This document shows, one piece after another, positions 395 through 37,360 of a stretch of DNA of 37,360 bases. The notes below the pieces were generated by a model. That model saw only the letters and a list, made by a program, of their open reading frames with translations. It did no database searches and had not been told where the DNA came from. This stretch comes from an uncultured virus (IMG/VR IMGVR_UViG_3300047539_000004) (taxonomy: Duplodnaviria > Heunggongvirae > Uroviricota > Caudoviricetes). Location: IMG/VR virus record IMGVR_UViG_3300047539_000004; one strand, 5' to 3'. Each line of letters begins with the position of its first letter. Positions within the stretch are counted from its first letter, which is position 1. The translations under genes and the position numbers were made by a program.

Positions 395-3300
395 TTAGCT
401 GATTGCGCTTGCGGCATCAATCTCACGGATTCTGATTGTTGTATCCTATTTGTTATCAATAACTTGCGTCATTGAGTTAGGTCATTTCTGCCTAACTCTC
501 ATGGTTTTTGTTCCCATGAGAACGGACTATCGCATCACCTTTCGGTGCCCTCTCACTTAGTCTCTCACGCTGCCTTTCGGCTTGCGCCCTGTTAGCCATT
601 TCAGCTTCCAAGTCAATCAGAGTGGGTTTATTACTCGCCCCAATACAATGTTTAGGGCCGAGCGAAGTTGTAAAATGAACTCTATCAATTTGTTATAATA
701 TTTCCCAAATCTTTGGCTAAAGTATATATTTCTTCAAGCCTTTGTAAAACAACTTCTTGTGGAAGCTGTTTACCGTATGCGCGAGTCATGCTAGCTTCCA
801 TCCAAGCTTTTAAAGTAAAGCTAGATTTGCTAGTCTGACATGATAAGAATCTGGTTTCTTCGTGTGTAGTGCAGCAAGGAACTAAGTTACCTTTTACATG
901 GCCTATAGAGGAATTTAATCTATCTAATCCCCATACTTTACCATCTTCAGGCTTTCGTCCACAATAAGCACACACTCTAGGGTTTCCTTCACTATCTAAA
1001 TAGTAAGGAATAGCTTCAACAGGACTTGTAAATCCAAATTCCCGTTTTTCAAGTTTATCAGTCCACTTCATACTAGCGTAACGTTTCCGTATGCTCTTAT
1101 AATAACCGTTCGACATGGATTTAGCTTTTAAAACGCCTTCCATACCTTCCCGGTTAAAGTGAACTAGTTTACCTTGTTTTCTCCATTTCGCAGCCCATTC
1201 TTGAATAGTACCGATAGTTACGCCGGTTCTAGTTTGAATCTCTTTTTGACTACGATTTTTAGAAAGAAGTTCGAATACTTTATCTTCAGTTTCTTTATCA
1301 ATTTTTATCATGCATACCTTAGGAGATATTAGATTGAGCATTTCTGTCAATCTCTTATAGTTTTATTCCTATAAGATCGGACTATTACTTCAGCCGTTTG
1401 GCTGTCTTCTTGTTTAGTCTCTCACGGCGAAAAGAATTTGTCAAGTCTTTTCTTCCGCCTCGTTGCCGTTTCAGGTTTCGAGTCGATTAAAGAAGATTAC
1501 TGATATCCTGTTTAAAGGGTCAGCCCATATATGATATTCTTATATCATGTAATGTTTAGGAAGTCCATCCGGGGATTAGCCCTTCGGGATCGGCAACTGT
1601 CGGTTCCTGTTATTTAGTTGCCTACAACTTCTGAGAACGCCAAACCTTTTAAAATCAATAACTTACCAGCGTTCTGAACGATATTGCACTTGATGTTGCT
1701 CCATTCACCGTCACCAAAACCTGTATCGCCTTGCGCACCGAGTTTGATAGAGAAAATACCATCACGCCCGAAGCTTGGATTGTTACTCGCTTTTTATAGC
1801 GGAGCAAGTCATTTCTGCTTGCTTCTTGGAGTTAAATTCTGTTATTAATTTGCAATGCTCTAGGAATGTAGTTTGTGAGTAGTTACTTTTGAATGAATTG
1901 CACACTCCGCAGCAAGCTACTGTATTCTCAGTTTGATAACCTTTTGCATTGTCTACTCTATCTACACCGTTATAGGTGTAACTATTTTGACTACCATAAC
2001 ATTTAGGTTTCAAAATCTGATAAGGTTCTTTACCACAATAAAAGCAAGTTTGTTTTGTAAGAATTTGAAATTCTTCAAAACTCAAAGAAAAACTGTATCC
2101 ACGTTTCTTTGCCAGAGACTTGTAAGTACCCCACAATGAACGTACCAGAGTTGTTTCATTTTTAGGTATGAGTCCAAGCTGATACCTGCAACCACAACTT
2201 TTACAGTGACCGTTCCGTAACGATGTTCCGGTCACCACAATGGTCTTTCCGCAGTCACACTGGCATATCCAACGTGCTCTATTTTTCTTTGAAATGCTTC
2301 TTTTTATGACTAAAAGACTGCTAAATCTTTTTCCCAATAAATCGTCTAATGGGCACTTTCCGCAGCTTTTGGTTGAACCGCCTACAAGATTGCTGTAAAA
2401 GAGTATGTGCTCATTTCCACAATCACACATACATTTCCACCTTGTTGAACCGTTTACAGTTCCTTCACAAGATATCGCAACAAGGCGACCGAATCGCCTG
2501 CCAACGAGGTTGGTCTTCATTTTTTCTCCAAGAACGGACTATCGCATCTTCCAAAGTCTTATTATACCACAATAAGAATAGGAAGTCAAATCGTTTAGTC
2601 TCTACTGCTGCACGGTTGCCCTGCTTGCAGTCTGTTCCCATTTCAGGGTTCAGCTTGATTAGATTTGATTTTCCGTATCAGCTTTCGTCTGATAGGACAC
2701 CTTAGTTGATGTAGGTACGTAGGGCTGTTAGACCAGTCACTGACTTGTAGTTAGGTGTCTGGGTAACTTGGTTTGTTTGGAAGAAACGTACACCTGAAGA
2801 TGGGAACTCAATCATTTCTGCAAGGTCCACAGAAATCAAATCTTCCATCTTTGCTTGACCTACTGGTGTATGCTTCAAAATGTCGATAACTGAATCATTG
2901 CTGTTGTCAGCAAGAACGTCACCGATTGCAAATGGGTGAATTACGCCAGCAAAAGTCTTGCTTGCTTCGTCAAAGGGGCGAACTGAACGACCTGCAAGGC
3001 TCTGTACTGAGTTACGAATCTGGTTAAGGCTCAGAGTTGTAAACGCAGTTAGTGATGTTGCACCTAGCTGTGTTAGAACACTTGCATCAACTGCATTCGC
3101 ACCGTCTGCTGTTGCACGAACTAGACCGCTTAGTGACTCACCAAGGCGATATGAAAGTTCGCGTGCTACATTCTCTACAGTGTTATCAATTGCGGTTGCA
3201 AGTGATAGTGAACTGAAATTAGCATAGTCCTAAGTTGTTTTGGGGTTGCTGTGTCACCACAGGGCCGCTCTCATGGTCACCCATGAGTTCAGACTCTATC

Positions 3301-4525
3301 TTCACAGAATTGTCTGTGCCTGACGTATTAGTCGTTACGGATTCACCGCGATTAAGGGCCTTATTTTTATCATAGAATTCTTTGCGCTTGGATGGGTTTT
3401 GCTCCCGTTCACAACGAATAAATTCTAAGGCGTTTAATGCCTGTTCGCGTTTAATGAGTAAATATGGAAGGATTCCTAGTAGAAAAACTTCTTGCGCCTT
3501 CACACCGCCTTTCGTAAACCACTGAAATACTGGTCTTCCGGGGTTAAGTGCTTGCTTTTTTTTATAAACAACACCGCCAAAATTCTCAACAAAAAAGTCC
3601 ATTAGTTTTTGTGATGTATTGGCAACTTGTATACGAAGCATATAGGCTTTGTATGTAGTTCCGGCGCTGGTTACATGATTTGCTGCGCCAATGCTAATGC
3701 AGCCCTCTGCATCAACCATAGCGGCAGCATAAATCCAGTTTTCTTTATTACTCATTTGTGTCTTTCCTCGGTATTGTCTGTATTATAACAGAGTTTCACC
3801 GATATAGTCAAGTTTTGATTAATGAGAACGCCAACTAATTGATACTAAAGCACTTAGCGTACTCTCCGATGGTTGCTGTCGTAGTTAAAACGTTAATTGA
3901 AATGCCACTACCAACTGTACCCTCAGTTGTCTGAGTAGTATTAGCTGCAAAAGGTACGTACATGAAAAGTTCGTACTGATTACCGCTCTTAGTTGGTAAA
4001 TCCAATCTCTCAGAACATGCTACGAAAGGTGTTTGTGCTTTCAGATTCTCTCTGAATTTCTTCAAATTTGTTACGTGTTTTCACACGGATTAGGCATTTC
4101 TGCTAATCTCATACAGTTGTTTTTCCTGTATGTTCGGACTATCGCATCACTTAAATGAGTCTACATAAGCTTTTTATCTTCAACAGTTATGCCATATTTA
4201 CGCATAAGATGTTGCGGCATATCTCGATGAGCTTCTCTATACTTTTTAGCATATTGACGCATCTTATCTCGATGTGCAGCCCTATAGTTTTTATGATATT
4301 CTTTTAGTTGTTCTGGTGTTCTCATTATTTGTGTTCTCTCGCTTAGTCTCTCACGCTGCCATTACGCTTGCGCCCTGTTAGCAGATATAATACTCATTAT
4401 ATCATATTTCAGCTTCCAAGTCAATAAGAGAGAATTTAACCACGACAAGATTATTTATCGTAGTAACGTACTGTTGACTGAGGTAAATTAGACTGACTAT
4501 TACTTGATGGACTATAACCTGCCAT
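395..4525 (-). CDS. Major capsid protein, N4-gp56-like, 344 aa; exons 4525-4457, 4062-3856, 3229-2709, 1773-1668, 1606-1558, 685-654, 445-395
   Basis: Exons sum to 1035 nt in one open frame: MAGYSPSS...VRYYD|KKFRENLKAQ...IGEYA|DYANFSSL...GVIHPF...LRTYI|FGRDG...VQNA|EPTVADPEGLIPGWTS|YRVHFTTSLGP|DTTIRIREIDAASAIS*. Every junction follows the group I rule (exon ends in U, intron ends in G). Located after portal and scaffold. Confidence 0.88.
446..653 (-). ncRNA. Group I intron 6 (208 nt, no ORF)
   Basis: P1: CUCGGCCCU pairs with GGGGCGAG; core motifs GCAGCGUGAGAGACUAAG and GAUGCGAUAGUCC; ends UAACAAAUAG. Confidence 0.92.
685..1311 (-). CDS. Intron-encoded HNH-type homing endonuclease with N-terminal HTH-like region
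   Basis: CAYCG...GLDRLNSSIGHVKGNLVPCC; likely start ATG 1311 after TAAGGT; the TGA stop overlaps the 3' splice site. Confidence 0.75.
   Translation of the reverse strand: MIKIDKETEDKVFELLSKNRSQKEIQTRTGVTIGTIQEWAAKWRKQGKLVHFNREGMEGVLKAKSMSNGYYKSIRKRYASMKWTDKLEKREFGFTSPVEAIPYYLDSEGNPRVCAYCGRKPEDGKVWGLDRLNSSIGHVKGNLVPCCTTHEETRFLSCQTSKSSFTLKAWMEASMTRAYGKQLPQEVVLQRLEEIYTLAKDLGNIITN
686..1557 (-). ncRNA. Group I intron 5 (872 nt) with endonuclease ORF in its 3' region
   Basis: Core GCCGUGAGAGACUAAAC ... GAAGUAAUAGUCCG; ends AUAACAAAUUG; removal rebuilds a T|AT Tyr codon. Its P1 looks short (CCU with GGG). Confidence 0.85.
1607..1667 (-). other. 61-nt core-less group I-like mini-intron (intervening sequence 4)
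   Basis: Contains an in-frame TAA and shifts the frame; guide GGUUUGGCGUUCU pairs over 13 nt with ligated exons AGAACGCU|GAACC; small hairpin AGUUG-UAGG-CAACU; ends AUAACAG; no catalytic core. Confidence 0.8.
1783..2520 (-). CDS. Intron-encoded HNH homing endonuclease
   Basis: Two N-terminal GxRFxxL...WxCxCDCG...KSCG repeats; C-terminal CFYCG...GVDRVDNAKGY...CCGVCNSFK; GGAGA RBS. Confidence 0.88.
   Translation of the reverse strand: MKTNLVGRRFGRLVAISCEGTVNGSTRWKCMCDCGNEHILFYSNLVGGSTKSCGKCPLDDLLGKRFSSLLVIKRSISKKNRARWICQCDCGKTIVVTGTSLRNGHCKSCGCRYQLGLIPKNETTLVRSLWGTYKSLAKKRGYSFSLSFEEFQILTKQTCFYCGKEPYQILKPKCYGSQNSYTYNGVDRVDNAKGYQTENTVACCGVCNSFKSNYSQTTFLEHCKLITEFNSKKQAEMTCSAIKSE
2561..2589 (-). 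promoter_or_regulatory. Sigma70-type promoter inside intron 3
   Basis: TTGACT-17-TATAAT with an extended TG motif, 40 nt upstream of the HNH ATG. Confidence 0.75.
3219..3755 (-). CDS. Single-motif LAGLIDADG homing endonuclease
   Basis: WIYAAAMVDAEGCISI motif and ILPYLLIKREQA helix; the ORF continues through the intron core and 11 nt into exon 3. Confidence 0.88.
   Translation of the reverse strand: MSNKENWIYAAAMVDAEGCISIGAANHVTSAGTTYKAYMLRIQVANTSQKLMDFFVENFGGVVYKKKQALNPGRPVFQWFTKGGVKAQEVFLLGILPYLLIKREQALNALEFIRCEREQNPSKRKEFYDKNKALNRGESVTTNTSGTDNSVKIESELMGDHESGPVVTQQPQNNLGLC
3230..3855 (-). ncRNA. Group I intron 2 (626 nt) with LAGLIDADG ORF
   Basis: P1: GAGUACGCU with GGCGUUCUC; core CCGUAACGACUAAU ... 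AAGAUAGAGUC; ends AAACAACUUAG. Confidence 0.9.
3782..3811 (-). promoter_or_regulatory. Sigma70-type promoter inside intron 2
   Basis: TTGACT-18-TATAAT with an extended TG motif, followed by GAGGA and ATG 3755. Confidence 0.72.
4161..4325 (-). pseudogene. Truncated endonuclease VII-like homing endonuclease (54 aa) in intron 1
   Basis: MRTPEQLKEYHKNYRAAHRDK...HLMRKYGITVEDKKLM*; the xxKYGIT segment resembles the region just before the EndoVII nuclease domain, which is absent here. Confidence 0.6.
4396..4424 (-). promoter_or_regulatory. Sigma70-type promoter inside intron 1
   Basis: TTGACT-17-TATAAT with an extended TG motif. Confidence 0.72.
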
Positions 4526-16471: not shown

Positions 16472-17272
16472 TTAAGGCTTTTCAACACTGTCCTCCGTAA
16501 AGTCGAGTTTGATTCGTTTTTTGACGTTAGCCCAGAATGTAGGAGCAGGAATATGCTCAGTAGGCTCAATTCCGAGTTTTTGCATCTTCACAAAGAGAGG
16601 TTCCAACTCTTCAAGGCTTACGCCTTTGATAATCGTGTAGCCGATCTCATCTTCTGCCCACTTTCCCCGCGCCCATCGGTCAGGACGGGTGCAATAGACC
16701 ACGTACCAGTGCTGTCGGCCCGCTTTAAGGCATCCAGCGCAGTTTCCGTGTTTGAATCGCTCATAAGTGTTTGGGCGAAGAATACCAATTTCCTCCGTAG
16801 CCCAGATGGTTCGATCTCTCCAGAGGGCCAAAGGGAAGTCCGTCTTGAACCCCTTAGAGGCAAGGTGACTGCTTCGCCGCTGGATACGACTAAGCTCATT
16901 GGCATCAAAGCCGTAGCAGATCACATCATCTGGCCTGCCATTATCCTCAAGCCAATTCTCGAACGGCTGAGTTTTCATGCGATTGGTACAGAGAGCGGTT
17001 CCGTTTCCAACCTTGAAAGCCCCGGCCTCAACTACAACATCAAACTGGTCTTTGGTCTCCCAGTTTGGGGCGTTGCAGTAAGTGATTTCCATGCCCAAGT
17101 AATCGGCAACTTCCTTCTTAAATCGCTTGATGTCCTGTCCTTCGGAAGCGGGAGCAATGTCATGGTTGAGGAGAATAACGCGGTCTTTGCCGTACCGTCT
17201 CACTGTTTCGATGGCAACCAGCGCAGACGAATGGCCGCCAGAATAGCAGTCGATGTATCTAGGATTTTGCAA
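16472..17272 (-). CDS. PAPS-reductase-like (PP-loop) protein
   Basis: CYSGGHSS, ALCTNRMK, FKHGNCAGCLKAG; likely TTG start at 17272 after GAAGGAG; visibly more GC-rich than its flanks. Confidence 0.75.
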   Translation of the reverse strand: MQNPRYIDCYSGGHSSALVAIETVRRYGKDRVILLNHDIAPASEGQDIKRFKKEVADYLGMEITYCNAPNWETKDQFDVVVEAGAFKVGNGTALCTNRMKTQPFENWLEDNGRPDDVICYGFDANELSRIQRRSSHLASKGFKTDFPLALWRDRTIWATEEIGILRPNTYERFKHGNCAGCLKAGRQHWYVVYCTRPDRWARGKWAEDEIGYTIIKGVSLEELEPLFVKMQKLGIEPTEHIPAPTFWANVKKRIKLDFTEDSVEKP

Positions 17273-17381
17273 TTTTCTTCTCCTTCCGCTTCCGCTTTTT
17301 CTGAGCCTTCGTCTTCGGTGCTGGCCGGTAGGCCAGCACCACATCTGTTATCGTGTCTAATACTTGCGGGGTTTCTTTCAT
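17259..17381 (-). CDS. Small basic ORF (40 aa) coupled to the transposase stop
   Basis: MKETPQVLDTITDVVLAYRPAPKTKAQKKRKRKEKKIAKS*; ATGA overlap with the transposase fragment. Confidence 0.55.
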   Translation of the reverse strand: MKETPQVLDTITDVVLAYRPAPKTKAQKKRKRKEKKIAKS

Positions 17382-18206: not shown

Positions 18207-18740
18207 TTAGGAATTTACTTTTCTTACTTTTTTCCTCTTTATTTTCTGTGATTTAGGCACACTACGCGCCTTCTCCTCTACAGAAACCTGCTTTGCAGAT
18301 ACAACTACTACCTTCTCTTCTTTTGAAAATGGACTCTTAAAGCCCTTGATATAATAAGGACTTCTGTAAACCGGCTCAACCTTCTTCCTCTCATGCATCA
18401 ACACACGAACATCAAACTTATCGTGACAGGGTATACACAAAGGAACCAAATTACCGATAACGTTTGTTCCTCCACGGCATATGGGAACTACATGATGCCT
18501 GTGTTTAGCGAACGAATCACATAAATAACACTTTGTTGTCCCTGACCATAAATCTATCAAATCATTCGAAATCTCTTTAAAAGCATGTCTCATTATGATC
18601 ATGTCTATTTTAGATACCCAATTACCTTTTCGTAAACTACGCGTTAAGAAATCAAGTCTCTGACTCTTATGTATTGTATACAATGGACAGCCGACAAACA
18701 ACTCGCTTTCTGGTGTGTTTTCAGTAAGAACCTTCTCCAT
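18207..18740 (-). CDS. Free-standing HNH endonuclease
   Basis: CYLC...HHVVPICRGGTNVIGNLVPLCIPCH. Confidence 0.85.
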   Translation of the reverse strand: MEKVLTENTPESELFVGCPLYTIHKSQRLDFLTRSLRKGNWVSKIDMIIMRHAFKEISNDLIDLWSGTTKCYLCDSFAKHRHHVVPICRGGTNVIGNLVPLCIPCHDKFDVRVLMHERKKVEPVYRSPYYIKGFKSPFSKEEKVVVVSAKQVSVEEKARSVPKSQKIKRKKVRKVNS

Positions 18741-25608: not shown

Positions 25609-27813
25609 ATGAGAGCAATACTAGCTACAGGTTTGTTAGCGCTTTGTCTAGGACTTACCGGATGCCCCACACAGACCCCGGTTCCGAATGTGCCGGTATC
25701 TCCACCAGTACAACCAGCACCACCACTTCCACCACCAGTTGTAACGCCAACTCCATTGCCTCTACCGACTCCAGCACCAGCACCAGCACCAGCACCCGTA
25801 TCAACCGTTATCACATATAACTGGGGAGTAATCGGTGATACATCTACATCGTTTATAAACGCGAAGAGTTGGGACACACAATCTGTCCTACCTGTAGACA
25901 TGGCGATTGCGAATGGTATTGCATACACGGCTAACGCTTACTCAGAGGGTGGAAAGAATGCATCTAGCTTCCCGCTTGCTACTCCGCAGCAACCCACGGC
26001 TTTGAATAGCGCTGGTTACTTGGACGAAGATCAATTTGTAACTACTGATGGCGTAAACGTTTACTATGCACAAGTAGGTTCAGGTTGGCCAGCAAGCGTT
26101 CCATACATCATGGCGTGGAACATTGCATCCAATAGTTACTACTTGTTTCCATCAGGAGTGAAGCCTACCAATGGAACTCTGGTGCCAAATGTAATTGATG
26201 AAGGGAATCTAGCTGGTGGAATAGCCGCACAAACTACAGGGAACATTCTAGCAGTTAGTCATACGGCTGCAAACCAGATTGTTCTATTCGATAAAACGAC
26301 TGGTGCAACACTTCAAATTGAAAGCATTCCCTCCCCCGGAAGGATGGCTTTTGAACCGGACGGAAGTCTCTGGGCAATTTCAGGAATGACTGTAGTAAAC
26401 ATTTCAGGAATAGGTGGTTCAAATAAGATCGTTACGACACTGACTCCTTTGATTGCCCCGCTTACCGTAACTGTGGACCCGGTAACATCAAATGTTCTAG
26501 TTGCTGATGGTGGTGCGTCCCAACAGGTAAAGACGTTCTCTGAAGCTGGAGTTCTTCTCTCAACTTACGGAACTCTTGGCGGCTATACGGATTGTTCCCC
26601 AACGGTAAGCAAAACACGCCTTTGGCTTGATGATACAGCTGGAAGAGGTTACGCAAAACAGACACTACTTACTGTTGCACCAGATAGTTCATTTTGGGTT
26701 GGTGACCCCGGCAATGCGCGTATCTTGCACATATCAGCTACAGGAACTTATCTTGAAGAAATTAGTTTTATGAGGTATCTCTATTATGTCGCAGTCGATC
26801 ACACAAACCCATCAAGAGTATTTGCCGATGCACTCGAATTTTCAGTTAATTACTCCGTCCCTCTCGTACCGGGAGATGGAGGAGGCGGTGCATGGTCACT
26901 TGCTCGTAACTGGGCAGCTTGTGTACCACCAAGTTATACCGGCCAGTTTGGATTCAGATTCGCCCAAGTCCAAACCTTCCCAAACGGACTAACCTATGGG
27001 CTTCTTTACAATTATGTTGCTGCAACCAATCAAGCCTACAACGAATTGGTTCAGTTTCCGGCAACCGGACCCTTAGTGCGTAGTGGACAATTCCTTTCAC
27101 CTACCGGGTGGGCATTTGATTTCTTTGATCACTCTGGAAATCTGGTGAACTGGAGTATGACAACGATTAACAGCTTGCCGGTACAAGCGGCTTATTCAGC
27201 ACCATTAACCGGATACAGTGCAACAGGTTTACCGCAATGGGGAACAGCGGTTTTAGTCGCTTCTGTTCCTAACGCCGGTGCCACGACTACGCCAAACGGG
27301 TACGCGGGTTGGGGACAGACGTTCCCTCCTATTCCAACGACAGGAGGTTACTACCCAACTTACCAGACAGCAATTAGTACGCCGGGACAGGACAAGCATT
27401 TAGGGGCTGTACTTGCAGGAGGAACCACTTGGGCATGGACTGGTGCGCCGGGAGCGATGTTGACAGCGCCGGATGGACTTGGTACATTTACAGATGTGCA
27501 ACCTTTTGGTGGACATGGAGGAATTGCAGCAGCGAGTGAAGGGAAATACATCATTCAGGGTTATGACGGACAGTGGGGACCGTATGCAAGTCAGTGGTTC
27601 TTGTATAATGAGACAGGGACATTTCTAGGACAGTATGGACACGGCTTCACGCTCCCGGCTCCAAGTGATGGGTCAGAGTACCCATTTGCTGCTGGAAACA
27701 TCTGGACAATGTCAACGGCCATGTCAACGGATGGAAAGTGTATCTATCTAATCAACTCGGACGAAGGATACCACCCCGGAGTTCACGTAACACAGTTCTG
27801 TAACTTGCCGTAA
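25609..27813 (+). CDS. Large lipoprotein, probable beta-propeller
   Basis: Lipobox LTGC, Pro-rich linker, NHL-like blades (MAFEPDGSLW, VTVDPVTSNVLVADGG, VAPDSSFWVGDPGNARI). Confidence 0.75.
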   Translation: MRAILATGLLALCLGLTGCPTQTPVPNVPVSPPVQPAPPLPPPVVTPTPLPLPTPAPAPAPAPVSTVITYNWGVIGDTSTSFINAKSWDTQSVLPVDMAIANGIAYTANAYSEGGKNASSFPLATPQQPTALNSAGYLDEDQFVTTDGVNVYYAQVGSGWPASVPYIMAWNIASNSYYLFPSGVKPTNGTLVPNVIDEGNLAGGIAAQTTGNILAVSHTAANQIVLFDKTTGATLQIESIPSPGRMAFEPDGSLWAISGMTVVNISGIGGSNKIVTTLTPLIAPLTVTVDPVTSNVLVADGGASQQVKTFSEAGVLLSTYGTLGGYTDCSPTVSKTRLWLDDTAGRGYAKQTLLTVAPDSSFWVGDPGNARILHISATGTYLEEISFMRYLYYVAVDHTNPSRVFADALEFSVNYSVPLVPGDGGGGAWSLARNWAACVPPSYTGQFGFRFAQVQTFPNGLTYGLLYNYVAATNQAYNELVQFPATGPLVRSGQFLSPTGWAFDFFDHSGNLVNWSMTTINSLPVQAAYSAPLTGYSATGLPQWGTAVLVASVPNAGATTTPNGYAGWGQTFPPIPTTGGYYPTYQTAISTPGQDKHLGAVLAGGTTWAWTGAPGAMLTAPDGLGTFTDVQPFGGHGGIAAASEGKYIIQGYDGQWGPYASQWFLYNETGTFLGQYGHGFTLPAPSDGSEYPFAAGNIWTMSTAMSTDGKCIYLINSDEGYHPGVHVTQFCNLP

Positions 27814-27924: not shown

Positions 27925-28506
27925 ATGCAAAATATATGGTTCACAGGCGATTTGCACCTAGGACATTTCAATGTCATTAGGTTTTGCAATCGCCTTTTTG
28001 CGTCTACAAATGAAATGGATGAGAGTTTAATAGACAACTATAATCGCTTGGTTAAACCGAACGATATAGTTTATATACTCGGAGATTTATTTTGGAAAAC
28101 CCTAACGCAAGAACAGGCAAATAGCTATGCAGCAAGATTAAACGGGCAGAAGCACTATATTTTTGGCAACCACGAAGAAAGAATGCAGCACAAAGATATT
28201 CATAAGTATTTTGTGTGGAGAAAGGATTATGCCGAAATACATCCAGCAGATCAGAAGAGGATGGTTCTTTTTCACTATCCTCTGAGAAGTTGGCATGGAA
28301 GTAACTATGGAACCTATTGCCTTCACGGTCATTGCCACGGAAATTTGCCTGAAATAAAACAGGGCTTGACAAATGAAGAGTCCCCGTTGATAATGGATGT
28401 AGGGGTGGATTGCAATAATATGTACCCGTTCAGCCTTGAAGATGTGGTGCAAAAAATGAAGTCTAAGAAAGGGTTACATGGCGATGAAGAAGGCACCCAA
28501 CTTTAG
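27925..28506 (+). CDS. Calcineurin-like metallophosphoesterase
   Basis: GDLHLGH, LGD, GNHE, HYP, HGHCH, DVGVD. Confidence 0.9.
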   Translation: MQNIWFTGDLHLGHFNVIRFCNRLFASTNEMDESLIDNYNRLVKPNDIVYILGDLFWKTLTQEQANSYAARLNGQKHYIFGNHEERMQHKDIHKYFVWRKDYAEIHPADQKRMVLFHYPLRSWHGSNYGTYCLHGHCHGNLPEIKQGLTNEESPLIMDVGVDCNNMYPFSLEDVVQKMKSKKGLHGDEEGTQL

Positions 28507-29758
28507 CGCGTTCCATGCGGAGAAATGGGCGAAGAAACAGGATACTCAGGAGGAGTCGCAAGGGGAGTGGCAGAATTTCAAGGATGTTGTGAAGCCAATA
28601 TTACCTATCCCAACGGGTTACGGGCAAAGTGTAGAGGTATACCACGCATATGCACAAGGTAAAAACCCATCTGTGCAAGTAGGTGCTTATTCGAACGGTG
28701 CTGCTGGTCTTGCCGATTTCTACGTGTGTTGTGATGTATGCAATACGAGTGCTGAACTAAATGTCACGCATCCAATTACACACATTGATGATTATTGTAA
28801 ATTTCATGTTCATAAGTTGAAAAATGAAACGATAAGTGGCTTGGCTTTTCTGTCTAGCGGTAAAGTTCCGGCTACATATCAGGCGTATGCAGATAAGGAG
28901 TCTAACTCTAATGTAATTCTTGCTGTTATACCAGTGTTGGTTGACCCAATGGGGACACTAAACGTTAGCATTGGTTGCAAAGTTTGTAAGAGCGCTGTAT
29001 ACCATACGGAATATTCTATACAGCAGTCGTACCCCGGTTCATCGAATTGTTTCATAGATGCAGTCAAAGATTTTTGCGGTAAGCACAGACATGATGCGCA
29101 AAAGGAACAAAAGGAGCAGACACTTGAAGAGAAGGTACACATTGCATCGGACGGAAATGTTCTAACAAAGCACAACAAAAATAGTTATCCTAGTATTGAC
29201 GAATACGCTTTGACATGTACGATCTGTGAACAGAAATCGAACTGGCTTGAAGCGAATAATCTCGAACAATGTGCGTTAGGTTGGGCCAAAGATCACAAAC
29301 ACACAGCGCCAACAGCGCCAACAATGAACGTTGTAGACATTGCCGCATTCAAAGAGGCCAAATTCCCAAATGTCGCACCAGTTTATTATTATTACAATGA
29401 AGAGGGCAATCAAATATTCGCACCACAGCCGAACAAAGAAGGGGGATGGATGGAAGGGACATTACAATTTCATGGAGTTAGCCAGAAGGAACCGACCATG
29501 ACACAGGACTTGCTGAAGTCTATTGCCAAATTGTCTAACTTCAATGTCAATCTTCAGGCTAAAAGGCTAGTTACCGGGACTTATGATTACAGGGCTGTTT
29601 GTGACAAGTGCGGGAGTTCTCAGCATTTTAATTACAGGAACTTGGTAGAACAGAACGGGGATGAATGGGTGGAATTGGGTAGGTTTTTAGATGCCCATAG
29701 ACACCTAGATGTAGTGAGTGTTACAATGACGGTAGGAAGAAAGTTCAGGGTTGAATGA
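28478..29758 (+). CDS. Protein with four CxxC...HxH zinc-finger-like repeats
   Basis: CDVC..HVH, CKVC..HRH, CTIC..HKH, CDKC..HRH. Confidence 0.7.
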   Translation: MAMKKAPNFSAFHAEKWAKKQDTQEESQGEWQNFKDVVKPILPIPTGYGQSVEVYHAYAQGKNPSVQVGAYSNGAAGLADFYVCCDVCNTSAELNVTHPITHIDDYCKFHVHKLKNETISGLAFLSSGKVPATYQAYADKESNSNVILAVIPVLVDPMGTLNVSIGCKVCKSAVYHTEYSIQQSYPGSSNCFIDAVKDFCGKHRHDAQKEQKEQTLEEKVHIASDGNVLTKHNKNSYPSIDEYALTCTICEQKSNWLEANNLEQCALGWAKDHKHTAPTAPTMNVVDIAAFKEAKFPNVAPVYYYYNEEGNQIFAPQPNKEGGWMEGTLQFHGVSQKEPTMTQDLLKSIAKLSNFNVNLQAKRLVTGTYDYRAVCDKCGSSQHFNYRNLVEQNGDEWVELGRFLDAHRHLDVVSVTMTVGRKFRVE

Positions 29759-30312
29759 CATTACTCAAGGATTGGCTCTCCAAAAAGACTTCTACAGTAA
29801 TGCCGACAGAAACGCCGGTAGAACAAACTATCAAGGCGATTAAAGAATCGTTGTCGAAGAGTGGAGGGATAGTAAAAGCAGATGGTGCCATACTCTTAAA
29901 TAACCCAGAAATTCAGAAAAAGTATCAGATTCAATTGGAAGGATTATCACCTATAGGCGGTCTAGGTTGGGGTGCAGTAGCGGGTTTAGCGGGACAAGTA
30001 AATAACCAGATGGGACAAGCAAACAGCCAACTTGTACAACAGGCAAACAACCAATTTGCACAATCACTTCCGATAGGTGATTATGCAGATTATCTGAATA
30101 TGGCCGATCTAGCCATAGACAAGAAAATTGTTGACCCAAAACCACTCGGTAAAGGCTACTACGACAAAGCCTTTATACTGAAAATGAAGGCTACCACGTC
30201 AACATTTTATCCTCCTACATCGTTAACACCGGATGTACCACAGGTTGTCAAGAAGGAAGTTGTTCTGCCACATGTACCCGACTATAATGGAAGGAGATTT
30301 AGAAATGATTGA
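29755..30312 (+). CDS. Hypothetical protein
   Basis: ATGA-coupled to the upstream gene. Confidence 0.65.
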   Translation: MTLLKDWLSKKTSTVMPTETPVEQTIKAIKESLSKSGGIVKADGAILLNNPEIQKKYQIQLEGLSPIGGLGWGAVAGLAGQVNNQMGQANSQLVQQANNQFAQSLPIGDYADYLNMADLAIDKKIVDPKPLGKGYYDKAFILKMKATTSTFYPPTSLTPDVPQVVKKEVVLPHVPDYNGRRFRND

Positions 30313-30658
30313 TCATTTACTAGGACTAATCCTACAAGTGAGGGCAGCACTTCCTATAAAACATTCTACAAGAACTAAGGCTACGTTCTACGCATCCAAT
30401 TTCGAAGATAGGGTAATGGCCAATGGAAGAGTGTATCATAGTCTAGAGTACTCCGTAGCCTGTAACTTCTACCCGCTCGGAACGCTGGTATCTATTACGA
30501 CAGAAGACGGCAAGAGAGAGATTGTGGCTAGGGTGACGGACAGGAAGAGAACAAGCACGAGCATAGACCTGTCCGAGTCGGCTTACAGGGCATTGGGGCT
30601 GTCTGAGGAAGCCGGGTGGGGATGGGTAACGATGGATTTGGTGAAGGAGAACAAATGA
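30305..30658 (+). CDS. RlpA-like double-psi beta-barrel protein
   Basis: ATFYAS...MANG, YPLGTLVSI, RVTDR, IDLSESAYRALG. Confidence 0.8.
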   Translation: MIDHLLGLILQVRAALPIKHSTRTKATFYASNFEDRVMANGRVYHSLEYSVACNFYPLGTLVSITTEDGKREIVARVTDRKRTSTSIDLSESAYRALGLSEEAGWGWVTMDLVKENK

Positions 30659-35054: not shown

Positions 35055-36623
35055 ATGACGTTTCTTTCTCAGTTTAAGGCCGCACGTCGAGTCAGTACCC
35101 CGCTAGTTGCCGTTCGCACATTCGATGCCAAAAGTACCGTTGACGCTGTAAAAACCCTATTCCCGCCAAAGAAAGAGGGCACCAAAGAAGTTTCAACTAT
35201 CCCCCCCATGATACTGTGGGATTGCATTAACGGGTTCCGTTCCGTATCAGAGGCGGGAAAGTCAGCGCTTGCCAGCATGATTGCATTGAGCCAGCTTGAG
35301 TCAGTGGAACTAACTATCCCTCTTGATTCGGCACTTCGTTTTATCACGAATTTTCCCGAGGATACGATTATCTTCATTTCCAACATTCATCTCTTTTGGG
35401 GAGAAAAAGAGATAATCCAAGGGTTGTGGAATCTTCGTGATAGTTTCAAGGTTTCGGGCAATATGCTGGTAGCATTGACGAATCCAGGTGCGATTCTGCC
35501 AATAGAATTAGCTCACGATTTTCTCGTACTTGACGAACCTTTGCCAACACTAGAAGTACTTGAAGGTGTTGTCAAGAATACGTTCGAGTATGCTAAGCTT
35601 GACGCCCCGAGCGCTGAGATTATGACTCAAGCGACTGGTGCATTAATTGGTTTACCATACTTTCCCGCAGAACAGTCTACGGCAATGTGTCTCAACATTG
35701 CTAACGATAACGGAAAGGTTACGGGCACTCTTGACATAGAGGGCCTATGGGAACGTAAACGCCAAGCTATCAATGCTACGCAAGGCTTGAGCATTACCAC
35801 CGGCAAAGAAAAGCTTGACGAGATAGGCGGATTAGAAACAGTCAAAACGTTTTTGTTGCGCTTGCTAAATGGCAATGACTCCCCGCATTGCATTATCTTT
35901 TCAGACGAGATTGAGAAAACTTTCGCCGGGTCCGGGACCGATACATCAGGAGTAAAGACAGAATTGACCGGGTCCATGCTTCAATGGACTACAAAACTTG
36001 ACATGGCTGGAGTACTCGGCATTGGAGTACCGGGCGCGGGAAAGACACAGATAATGAAAGCAATCGCGGCACAAATGGGGATTCCGTTTATCACTTTCGA
36101 TTTGGCTGGTATGCAAGGTTCGCTTGTAGGTCAATCGGGCGCCGCATTACGTGCCGCGCAGTCTATCATTGAAGCGGTTTCGGGTGGGCGCATCCTATGG
36201 GTGGCAACTTGCAATTCTATTGATGCTTTACCACCCGAATTGCAAGCCAGATTTAAGGATGGAACCTTTTTCTTCGATGCGCCTACAATAGAAGAAAGAA
36301 TTTCGATTTGGGCAATTCATCGCAAGGCTTTTAACATTCCTGAAACTGATACGTTGCCAATTGACAAGGGTTGGACGGGGCGTGAGATTAGGGAATGCTG
36401 TTCTAAAGCCTATCGCCTTAAGATGAACCTTTCTGATGCGTCTCAGTACATCGTACCCGTTACGGTATCTAATGCGGGGAGTATTGACAATCTCCGCCGT
36501 CAATCGTCTGGTAAGTATCTCTCAGCGTCTCACACTGGCATCTATCGCTATGAAGAAGAAGTAAAGCCATTTACCGGGCATGTTTTGAACGTTGAACAGG
36601 GGCGTAAAATGCGCGAGAGCTAG
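35055..36623 (+). CDS. Ycf46-like AAA+ ATPase with rearranged motif order
   Basis: IGGLETVK, IIFSDEIEK, GVPGAGKT, GSLVGQS, VATCNSIDALPPEL, FFFDAP, GWTGREI. Confidence 0.85.
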   Translation: MTFLSQFKAARRVSTPLVAVRTFDAKSTVDAVKTLFPPKKEGTKEVSTIPPMILWDCINGFRSVSEAGKSALASMIALSQLESVELTIPLDSALRFITNFPEDTIIFISNIHLFWGEKEIIQGLWNLRDSFKVSGNMLVALTNPGAILPIELAHDFLVLDEPLPTLEVLEGVVKNTFEYAKLDAPSAEIMTQATGALIGLPYFPAEQSTAMCLNIANDNGKVTGTLDIEGLWERKRQAINATQGLSITTGKEKLDEIGGLETVKTFLLRLLNGNDSPHCIIFSDEIEKTFAGSGTDTSGVKTELTGSMLQWTTKLDMAGVLGIGVPGAGKTQIMKAIAAQMGIPFITFDLAGMQGSLVGQSGAALRAAQSIIEAVSGGRILWVATCNSIDALPPELQARFKDGTFFFDAPTIEERISIWAIHRKAFNIPETDTLPIDKGWTGREIRECCSKAYRLKMNLSDASQYIVPVTVSNAGSIDNLRRQSSGKYLSASHTGIYRYEEEVKPFTGHVLNVEQGRKMRES

Positions 36624-36711
36624 TCCAGGGATTATGGGGGGAGTATTGACAATCTCCCCTATTTCCTGTAATGTATTTCACAGCAGTTAAACCAATGAAG
36701 GGAAGGGAAAT

Positions 36712-37137
36712 ATGTCACAATATAGCGAAAACAAAACCCAGTTTAAGGATGCCGACACGCTGTGCGAGGCATTGCACGAACTGGGTTTCGATGCGTCTAT
36801 GATCGAACGGCATGAGAATGCAGTTTCGCTAGTAGACTTTCAAGGTCACAAAACATACTACTTGGATGAAAAGGGCGATAAAGCCGAAATAATCATCCGC
36901 AGAGTACATATCGGGTCATCCGCCAATGACATAGGTTTTAAGAAAAACCCGGATGGGACAATCTCTGCGATTATCTCAGCCTATGATTCGCACCGTTACG
37001 GTCAAGCATGGCTTACTAAGCTTAAGGCCGCATACTGCGAAAAGGGATGTATGAAGCAAGGTAAAAAGATGGGCCTTAGATTTGCGGGAAAGAAAACCGT
37101 AAACGGAAAGGTCCAATTGCAATTTCTGCAAGCTTAA
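36712..37137 (+). CDS. DUF1257 (Ycf35-like) protein
   Basis: MSQYSENKTQFKD..L..AL..LG, NDIGFKKNPDG, IISAYD; follows the AAA gene. Confidence 0.72.
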   Translation: MSQYSENKTQFKDADTLCEALHELGFDASMIERHENAVSLVDFQGHKTYYLDEKGDKAEIIIRRVHIGSSANDIGFKKNPDGTISAIISAYDSHRYGQAWLTKLKAAYCEKGCMKQGKKMGLRFAGKKTVNGKVQLQFLQA

Positions 37138-37184
37138 TACCCTTGCACATCAACCAACTTTTACCAGAAAAGAGGAGTCGAAAA

Positions 37185-37360
37185 ATGGCGAAAATCGTAA
37201 CCATTACCATCAACCCTTCAGACGCATCATTTACCGTAGACAATACGGGTTTTCAAGGTAAGGGATGTGCCGCGATAATCAAGGCTTTCGCGGAAATTGG
37301 CGAAATCACCAAAGAAGTACATAAGCCGGAATACGACCGTCCAGTCAAAACAACCAATAC
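37185..37360 (+). CDS. DUF2997-like small protein (partial)
   Basis: MAKIVTITINP...GFQGKGC...KPEY; GAGGAG RBS. Confidence 0.65.
   Translation, partial: MAKIVTITINPSDASFTVDNTGFQGKGCAAIIKAFAEIGEITKEVHKPEYDRPVKTTN

Follow-up and report, generated by a model that had tools for sequence, protein, structure and literature searches.

The AAA+ core is one of the best-studied enzyme folds. The order Walker A, Walker B, sensor 1 has the standing of a rule for it, and the profile models with which such proteins are annotated assume this order. The strands of the AAA β-sheet are arranged in the order 5-1-4-3-2, with strands β3, β4, and β1 adjacent and parallel. A natural departure from motif order is found in the circularly permuted GTPases of the YlqF/YjeQ/YawG type, whose motifs run G4-G5-G1-G2-G3 and which keep the fold of a P-loop nucleoside triphosphatase (NTPase). 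The present analysis concerns an ATPase encoded by an open reading frame (ORF) of 522 residues (35055..36623, + strand, as are all features of this ORF) in a stretch of 37,360 nucleotides from an uncultured virus of the Caudoviricetes (IMG/VR record IMGVR_UViG_3300047539_000004; this whole stretch is called the window below). The soil-phage protein is a two-tier, motor-type AAA ATPase with a degenerate N-terminal tier (tier 1) and a permuted C-terminal tier (tier 2) that is predicted to be the active one, in which Walker B lies 40 residues before Walker A and the usual succession of Walker A, pore loop 1, Walker B, and sensor 1 is broken. This rewiring is a real, natural, conserved, and non-circular permutation of the AAA core, and the permutation probably keeps the fold. 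We consider it very likely that the protein is a classical-clade AAA ATPase of a large tailed-phage family with a rewired tier-2 core, putatively active and ring-forming, and encoded in a module with DUF1257 and DUF2997 genes.

The motif order and the coordinates of the motifs given in the initial annotation proved exact on translation. An in-frame EIGGLETVK (residues 256–264) contains the IGGL box, which together with helix α0 (residues 257–271, 35823..35867; helix 261–271 in the AlphaFold2 model) stands ahead of the AAA core; G258 is nearly invariant (at least 90%) and G259 is invariant in an alignment of 115 sequences, to which the loop conservation given in this paragraph also refers. The transposed block follows (residues 277–316, 35883..36002) and comprises the Walker B strand (279–283), the acids D284 and E285 (35904..35909, in CIIFSDE at 279–285), a GxGTDTSG loop, and helix α3 (300–314), with residues 277–288 reading PHCIIFSDEIEK and LQW at 309–311. 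The conserved loop after Walker B (residues 291–306, AGSGTDTSGVKTELTG, 35925..35972), in which G292, S298, and G299 are invariant and T295 and D296 nearly so, stands at the position of pore loop 2 and is a candidate for this loop. Walker A then follows as the P-loop GVPGAGKT (G324–T331, 36024..36047), and after it strand β2 (345–348) and the pore-loop-1 region MQGSLVGQSG (together residues 343–362, 36081..36140), which aligns to the pore-loop-1 stretch of p97/VAT and in which M353 and G359 are invariant; a leucine replaces the usual aromatic residue in GSLVGQS (355–361). Past IEAV (372–375), helix α2 runs through an SGGR junction (376–379, 36180..36191) directly into the sensor-1 strand, at the very place where normal AAA domains have Walker B, and no hydrophobic strand followed by a DE motif is present in the stretch from Walker A to sensor 1. 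Strand β4 and the sensor-1 asparagine N387 (ILWVATCN, residues 380–387, 36192..36215; strand 380–386 in the model) are followed by the second region of homology (SRH), LPPELQARF (392–400, 36228..36254), with its candidate trans-acting R399, and by a helical lid subdomain (409–497, 36279..36545; helices within 412–484 in the model). N387 aligns to the ATN of VAT/p97 and R399 to the arginine of their PGRF; R399 is a putative arginine finger.

Standard profiles follow this protein for only part of its length. The match to the Pfam model PF00004 (52.8 bits; cut-off 21.2) covers residues 321–368 only, at profile positions 2–49 of 131, and cannot be extended beyond residue 368. When phmmer was run against the PDB sequences, residues 318–376 aligned to VAT/p97, after which a jump was needed to reach the part with sensor 1 and the SRH. 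The NCBIfam CDC48 model gave an E-value of 3.8e-4 for the window protein vs. 1.4e-32 for a normal-order relative; with such a fall, and with most relatives labelled ‘hypothetical protein’, the permuted proteins are systematically under-annotated. A match to the anti-phage ATPase IetA/IteA (PADLOC, NCBIfam) reached 29.7 bits against a cut-off of 510 over the P-loop stretch 321–367 only, and was rejected as generic AAA similarity.

Relatives with the same motif order were found in large numbers. A word-indexed search in which 8,000 candidates were scored gave 825 relatives at E ≤ 0.001, and the 120 of these that are listed are 46–98% identical and mostly carry the label ‘hypothetical protein’. 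An exhaustive profile search of 1.84 billion representatives gave 2,466 matches at E ≤ 1e-30, the best 150 of which all exceed 490 bits over nearly the full profile, whereas the ranks below may include normal-order relatives. The order is kept in all 267 aligned family proteins, which span about 35–60% sequence identity: E285, K330, N387, and R399 are each present in 267/267, G324 and G327 in 266/267, position 331 is S or T in 267/267, and aspartate occupies position 284 in 262 proteins and glutamate in the other 5. In a sample of viral contigs (80 loci fetched, 2 incomplete loci dropped, 78 ORFs used, loci not de-duplicated), D284, E285, K330, N387, and R399 stand at the aligned positions in 77/78 ORFs, the single miss being a locus where the longest ORF taken was not the ATPase. 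By a strict regular expression, 242 of 266 family proteins have Walker B ahead of Walker A (the remaining 24 failed the expression, not the alignment), and a downstream Walker B was seen in 0/266 and in 0/78 of the viral-locus proteins. Together with a gap of 42–43 residues against the normal-order relative, these counts bear out the claim of the initial annotation that no second Walker B follows Walker A. The conservation of the motif order far exceeds chance, and the joint invariance of the catalytic residues argues for a putatively active ATPase.

A search of 50,697 phage records gave a single member from a cultured phage, gp103 (‘ATPase’) of Tunturiibacter phage Tunturi_3 (PP885686), which is 43% identical over 98% of the protein and has the same order. 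Tunturi_3 belongs to a different phage species from the window's virus, and its large terminase is 54% identical to that of the window. PMC11924767 describes Tunturi_3 as a podovirus with a genome of 97.6 kb, its host being an acidobacterium from Arctic tundra soil, and a term search did not find the words ‘ATPase’ or ‘AAA’ in the main text of that paper. Three over-long relatives, examined as possible intermediates with two Walker B copies, instead carry insertions within catalytic motifs that look intein-like by eye: in P0143 (896 aa) the insertion splits sensor 1 (ATC|N), in P0266 (846 aa) it splits the P-loop after GK, and in the normal-order relative P0309 (892 aa) it splits the P-loop before SGKS. 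These insertions start with C and end with HN or GN, followed by C or S.

The initial annotation raised the possibility that a misassembled or chimeric contig made the odd order; nothing was found in its favour, and we regard it as negligible and already refuted. Logan contigs from four runs of four studies cover every bin of 35500–36700 with zero joints; one contig of 1,455 bases spans 35553–36700 in one piece with 59 differing letters, and each of the three rewired junctions is bridged by shorter identical contigs. Furthermore, the order recurs in the 267 database proteins, in 77 of the 78 viral contigs, and in gp103 of Tunturi_3, a cultured and completely sequenced phage. When public runs were searched by sequence words, the stretch or part of it turned up in 20 rows from 17 studies, all of them labelled as peat, permafrost, or soil metagenomes or left without a label. 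Strains about 95% identical to the window at 35500–36700 were seen in peat and permafrost metagenomes of several studies (runs X2, X3, and X8). Many of the strain differences in the ATPase gene fall at every third base, in third codon positions, which is the pattern that purifying selection would leave.

The place from which the block moved is seen in comparison with a normal-order sister family, typified by JP1_048 of Agrobacterium phage JP1 (616 aa, annotated AAA-ATPase), for which 120 relatives were collected and 118 aligned. The carriers are phages of about 90–105 kb, and the proteins are annotated as ‘SpoVK/Ycf46/Vps4 family AAA+ ATPase’ (phrog_8638); the family is presumably linked to cyanobacterial Ycf46. 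By BLASTP, residues 319–422 of the query align to JP1_048 345–491 with a query gap of 43 residues at JP1_048 404–446, and a second high-scoring segment pair places query 279–316 on JP1_048 404–442, inside this gap. The same was observed by hhalign, family versus family. The full-length alignment (3–499 vs. 28–589) has Prob 100 and E 5.8e-51, the N-terminal tier (1–245 vs. 28–307) E 1.2e-16, and residues 318–500 vs. sister 350–586 E 4.5e-38, and the gap of 42–43 residues in the permuted protein falls exactly at the sister's Walker B place. Residues 274–317 alone match the sister's Walker B block (408–448) with Prob 99.3 and E 1.9e-20, whereas the same residues reversed gave no template match (Prob 0.8). 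Past helix α2 the sister consensus reads ...PCVLFxDEIDKGLGG..GGGGDSGTSxRVLGTFLTWLQE..., and the regular expression found its Walker B downstream of Walker A in 116/120 and upstream in 0/120. The non-collinear matches thus indicate that the two families are full-length homologues differing by the position of one 40-residue block. Both have a degenerate N-terminal tier, the Walker B signature DE[IV][DE]K-x-G..GDSGTS..G..LTW, a non-aromatic pore loop 1, and LPPEL-R, whereas the sister family has a loop, FS.EA..FGI..PKG, just ahead of its Walker A strand for which the permuted family has no counterpart. Convergence in situ, by which the sister's FS.EA..FG loop would have become a new Walker B, was rejected on the match of the 40-residue block to the sister's true Walker B block at E 1.9e-20. 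This block homology, together with conservation in hundreds of independent assemblies and in one cultured phage, supports the proposal of the initial annotation that a natural internal segment had been swapped with all motifs intact.

A tree was made from 90 random sequences per family over the mapped columns, with rows of more than 30% gaps and unsampled rows left out. In this unrooted tree, the families fall on either side of a single branch with support 1.0, both when the columns of the moved block are kept and when they are removed, which fits one origin of the rewiring. Judged from sequence, the permuted family is a sister of the JP1-type family and not a member of it, and the rewiring most likely arose once. 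Its parent may have been a normal-order, Ycf46-like phage ATPase, in which, by the likeliest route, a tandem duplication of the block from β1 to α3 would have been followed by loss of the outer halves, amounting to a circular permutation of an internal segment. Compared with the normal order, block 277–316 has left its universal place between α2 and the sensor-1 strand and stands between α0 and the Walker A strand, giving the chain order α0-β3-α3-β1-α1-β2-α2-β4-α4-β5-lid.

The AlphaFold2 model, made with 115 sequences, has a mean predicted local distance difference test score (pLDDT) of 93.6 and a predicted template modelling score of 0.85. Tier 2 has helices at 261–271, 286–290, 300–314, 330–341, and 360–376, followed by the helical lid, and strands at 279–283, 318–324, 345–348, 380–386, and 403–407, i.e., five core strands, as any AAA domain. 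The best matches of the whole model by Foldseek and VIA-align are p97/Cdc48 D1+D2. VIA-align superposed residues 1–498 on p97 210–764 (D1+D2) with Z 18.6, a root-mean-square deviation (rmsd) of 4.8, and 403 aligned residues, and residues 246–497 on p97 D2 (468–764) with Z 16.3, rmsd 2.7, and 199/252 aligned. Such numbers (199–205 of 252) are about the remainder once a sequential aligner skips the moved block. As β1, β3, and β4 are adjacent and parallel in the AAA sheet, moving the block should re-route only three loops (α0–β3, α3–β1, and α2–β4), a change that the five-stranded 5-1-4-3-2 sheet and the active site could take without being altered. The initial annotation had held that the swap rewires the fold. 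The chain connectivity is indeed rewired, whereas the five core strands of the model and the covariation described below point to a kept fold and not to a new one.

Covariation was analysed by mean-field direct coupling in 264 sequences (effective number, Meff, 217). Among the top 130 pairs, 35 connect the moved block with other parts of the tier, including 8 to α2, 7 to the pore-loop-1 region, 6 to β4, 3 to β2, and 0 to β1 or β5. The pairs C279–S376 (rank 8), W311–E373 (rank 10), I286–A384 (rank 11), and I281–W382 (rank 25) are among them, and the positions of C279 and S376 are sequence neighbours in the normal order. Loop 291–306 covaries with the pore-loop-1 region (K301–Q354, rank 7; E303–G362, rank 13). 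With the moved strand written β3′, the block maxima are 2.73 for β3′–β4, 1.17 for β3′–β2, 0.55 for β3′–β1, 1.97 for β1–β5, 1.0 for β1–β4, and 0.70 for β2–β4, a pattern consistent with that expected for the sheet order 2-3′-4-1-5. The covariation thus offers supportive but modest evidence that the moved strand lies beside the sensor-1 strand β4, as in ordinary AAA domains. A parallel analysis of 188 normal-order proteins (Meff 155) showed that 6 of the top 69 homologous block-to-rest pairs are common to both families, vs. 0.68 expected and 1–3 with shifted mappings.

These contacts could also be made in a domain-swapped ring, in which each subunit would lend its block to the sheet of its neighbour and each active site would be built, in a new way, from two chains. 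Helix α3 and the Walker A strand are joined by a linker of only about three residues (in L315-D316-M317-A318-G319), which would suit such an exchange, and covariation is blind to intra- versus inter-chain contacts. However, AlphaFold2 folds the single chain with pLDDT 93–96 through residues 271–330, C279–S376 and W311–E373 covary as an intra-chain arrangement predicts, and, by the geometry of the known fold, the starts of β4 and β1 should be adjacent in the parallel sheet, for which a short linker would suffice. We regard the domain swap as very improbable.

A different reading accepts the homology of the upstream DE block to Walker B and holds that the block no longer works, so that tier 2 would be an ATP-binding but hydrolysis-dead switch or scaffold and the block structural or regulatory. 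It draws on the standard AAA profiles, which match only the P-loop half (by the Pfam and CDC48 results given above), and on the position of D284/E285 relative to the nucleotide, which is one that we infer. However, E285 is invariant and D284 nearly so across the divergence of the family, and K330, N387, and R399 are equally conserved, a pattern expected only if the whole catalytic set were jointly selected. Moreover, covariation sets the strand beside the sensor-1 strand in a tier modelled with exactly five core strands. A dead Walker B seems to us quite unlikely.

For the preferred reading, that of an active enzyme with a permuted core, roles can be proposed by homology, following a general description of classical AAA enzymes (PMC7973254). 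Tier 2 (about 246–500) would be the active module, whereas tier 1 is a degenerate AAA-like domain without a P-loop. K330 and T331 would bind ATP-Mg, D284 and E285 on the moved strand would give the Mg ligand and the catalytic base (the catalytic glutamate), N387 would be sensor 1, and R399 would act in trans on the site of the neighbouring subunit in a ring. The conserved loops 291–306 and 353–359, which covary with each other, would face the substrate. The DE pair would stand at the nucleotide, ATP would be hydrolysed, and a hexamer would be formed.

Several points weigh against this reading. Pore loop 1 (SLVG) is without the aromatic residue typical of threading unfoldases, as is that of the sister family. 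Intermediates with both Walker B copies were absent from the 266 + 78 + 120 proteins, and for this reason the duplication–deletion route is one that we infer. With the tree unrooted, derivation from the normal order is argued from the universal occurrence of this order in other AAA proteins. Covariation was read from a small sample (Meff 217), its β3′–β2 signal is weak (best pair at rank 124), the overlap of covarying pairs across families is modest (6/69), and the blindness of covariation to chain identity applies here as well. The placement of D284/E285 at the ATP site is a prediction from homology.

Tier 1 (residues 1–245, 35055..35789) is AAA-like with normal strand order, as judged from the AlphaFold2 secondary structure and from its alignment to p97 D1 in the whole-model match. 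GxxxxGK[ST] is absent from residues 1–245, and the β1–α1 turn, as placed by sequence and predicted secondary structure, reads RTFDAKS and is without a P-loop. The Walker B position has SN (FISNIHLFW), and a sensor-1-like motif reads LTN. An AGKS at a helix start (G68-K69-S70), within the strand–loop–helix of residues 60–70, resembles a P-loop remnant; this motif is unconserved across the family and lies away from the β1–α1 turn of the tier.

Downstream of the ATPase, the window encodes a DUF1257 (ycf35-like) protein of 141 aa (36712..37137, +; Pfam PF06868, 23.1 bits vs. a cut-off of 22.2), followed by a gene cut by the window end (37143..37358, +) with a weak match to DUF2997 (PF11211, 16.8 bits, below the cut-off of 24.1). 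Tunturi_3 has the same genes downstream of gp103, with gp102 as DUF1257 and gp101 as DUF2997 (29.1 bits). Counting Pfam-confirmed genes in loci that were not de-duplicated, DUF1257 and DUF2997 occur in 30/78 and 24/78 of the permuted-family viral loci, and in 44/80 and 60/80 of the normal-order loci. Iterative hidden Markov models gave 66 and 38 of the 78 permuted loci; these kept growing (25, 36, 53, 67 hits), may have drifted, and were not used. The module of AAA ATPase, DUF1257, and DUF2997 was seen in the window, in locus L002 (7673–8299), and among viral loci L003–L162, with permuted and normal-order ATPases alike. Where the ATPase has the normal order, the start of DUF1257 usually lies about 700–850 bases beyond the ATPase gene, which suggests one more conserved gene between them. 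A Pfam search of the JP1 neighbour genes JP1_047, 049, 050, and 051 gave no match. In cyanobacteria, as stated in PMC4284462, DUF1257 is ycf35 and pairs with DUF2997 adjoining the ferredoxin fed7. That both versions of the ATPase serve the same module suggests a shared task for the permuted and the normal-order enzyme. The function of the permuted enzyme is the weakest part of the reading; with low confidence, it may use ATP to remodel a protein or complex during infection, and the DUF1257 and DUF2997 proteins may be its partners or adaptors.

Elsewhere, the window encodes a portal protein, a DNA polymerase, a methyltransferase, and several HNH endonucleases, which together with the terminase identity to Tunturi_3 indicates that it is a piece of a related tailed phage. 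Four ORFs on the − strand (685–1350, 1783–2520, 3219–3755, and 18207–18740) match HNH/endonuclease VII homing-endonuclease families, an unusually high load for 37 kb. A further ORF (16472–17344, −) is phosphoadenosine phosphosulfate reductase-like (phrog_424, E 1.3e-24), and the ORF at 30233–30658 (+, 141 aa) has a DPBB_1 domain of the lytic transglycosylase type. The ORFs at 25609–27813, 28478–29758, and 29755–30312 (+; 734, 426, and 185 aa) sit between the DNA polymerase and methyltransferase genes and, at the thresholds used, matched nothing in PHROG or Pfam.

A search of the open PubMed Central and bioRxiv literature gave no description of an AAA/ASCE core with Walker B before Walker A and nothing relevant on Ycf46 together with phage; the pertinent parts of PMC10853773 and PMC7824862 concern permuted methylases only. 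We would give an even chance to the broader claim that this is the first described natural non-circular permutation in an AAA+/ASCE motor core, which is still active, was fixed once, and has spread through thousands of phage lineages. A large natural family breaks the AAA+ order yet keeps every catalytic residue, and the fold would appear to tolerate an internal, non-circular permutation. If the reading is true, the block of α3 and pore loop 2 is wired directly to the Walker A strand and not to the sensor-1 strand, nucleotide state and substrate-facing loops are coupled through a covalent path unlike that of every AAA motor studied so far, and the family is a natural experiment on the weight of chain connectivity in AAA mechanochemistry. 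The permuted and normal-order families, found in the same DUF1257/DUF2997 module, form a matched pair for testing connectivity against ATPase coupling, and two widespread domains, DUF1257/ycf35 and DUF2997, are tied to an AAA motor in phages.

Among the known systems, the type II classical AAA unfoldases, i.e., p97/VCP, Cdc48, VAT, and Rix7/NVL, are the best structural matches, and like them the phage ATPase has two stacked tiers in one chain. Walker A, the sensor-1 asparagine, and the SRH arginine are shared with p97/VAT. However, sequence identity to the p97-type unfoldases is only 14–22%, and the phage enzyme differs from them in a tier 1 without a P-loop, in having no p97-type N-domain, in its non-aromatic pore loop 1, and in the permuted core of tier 2. 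In the order of its motifs, it resembles the permuted GTPases; both are natural P-loop NTPases whose nucleotide-binding motifs depart from the rule, with the fold kept in the GTPases and probably kept here. Those GTPases, which belong to the TRAFAC class, are circularly permuted over the whole domain, whereas the phage ATPase shows transposition of an internal block in an ASCE/AAA+ core, which is equivalent to a circular permutation of the internal segment from β1 to α3 with both termini of the domain staying in place.

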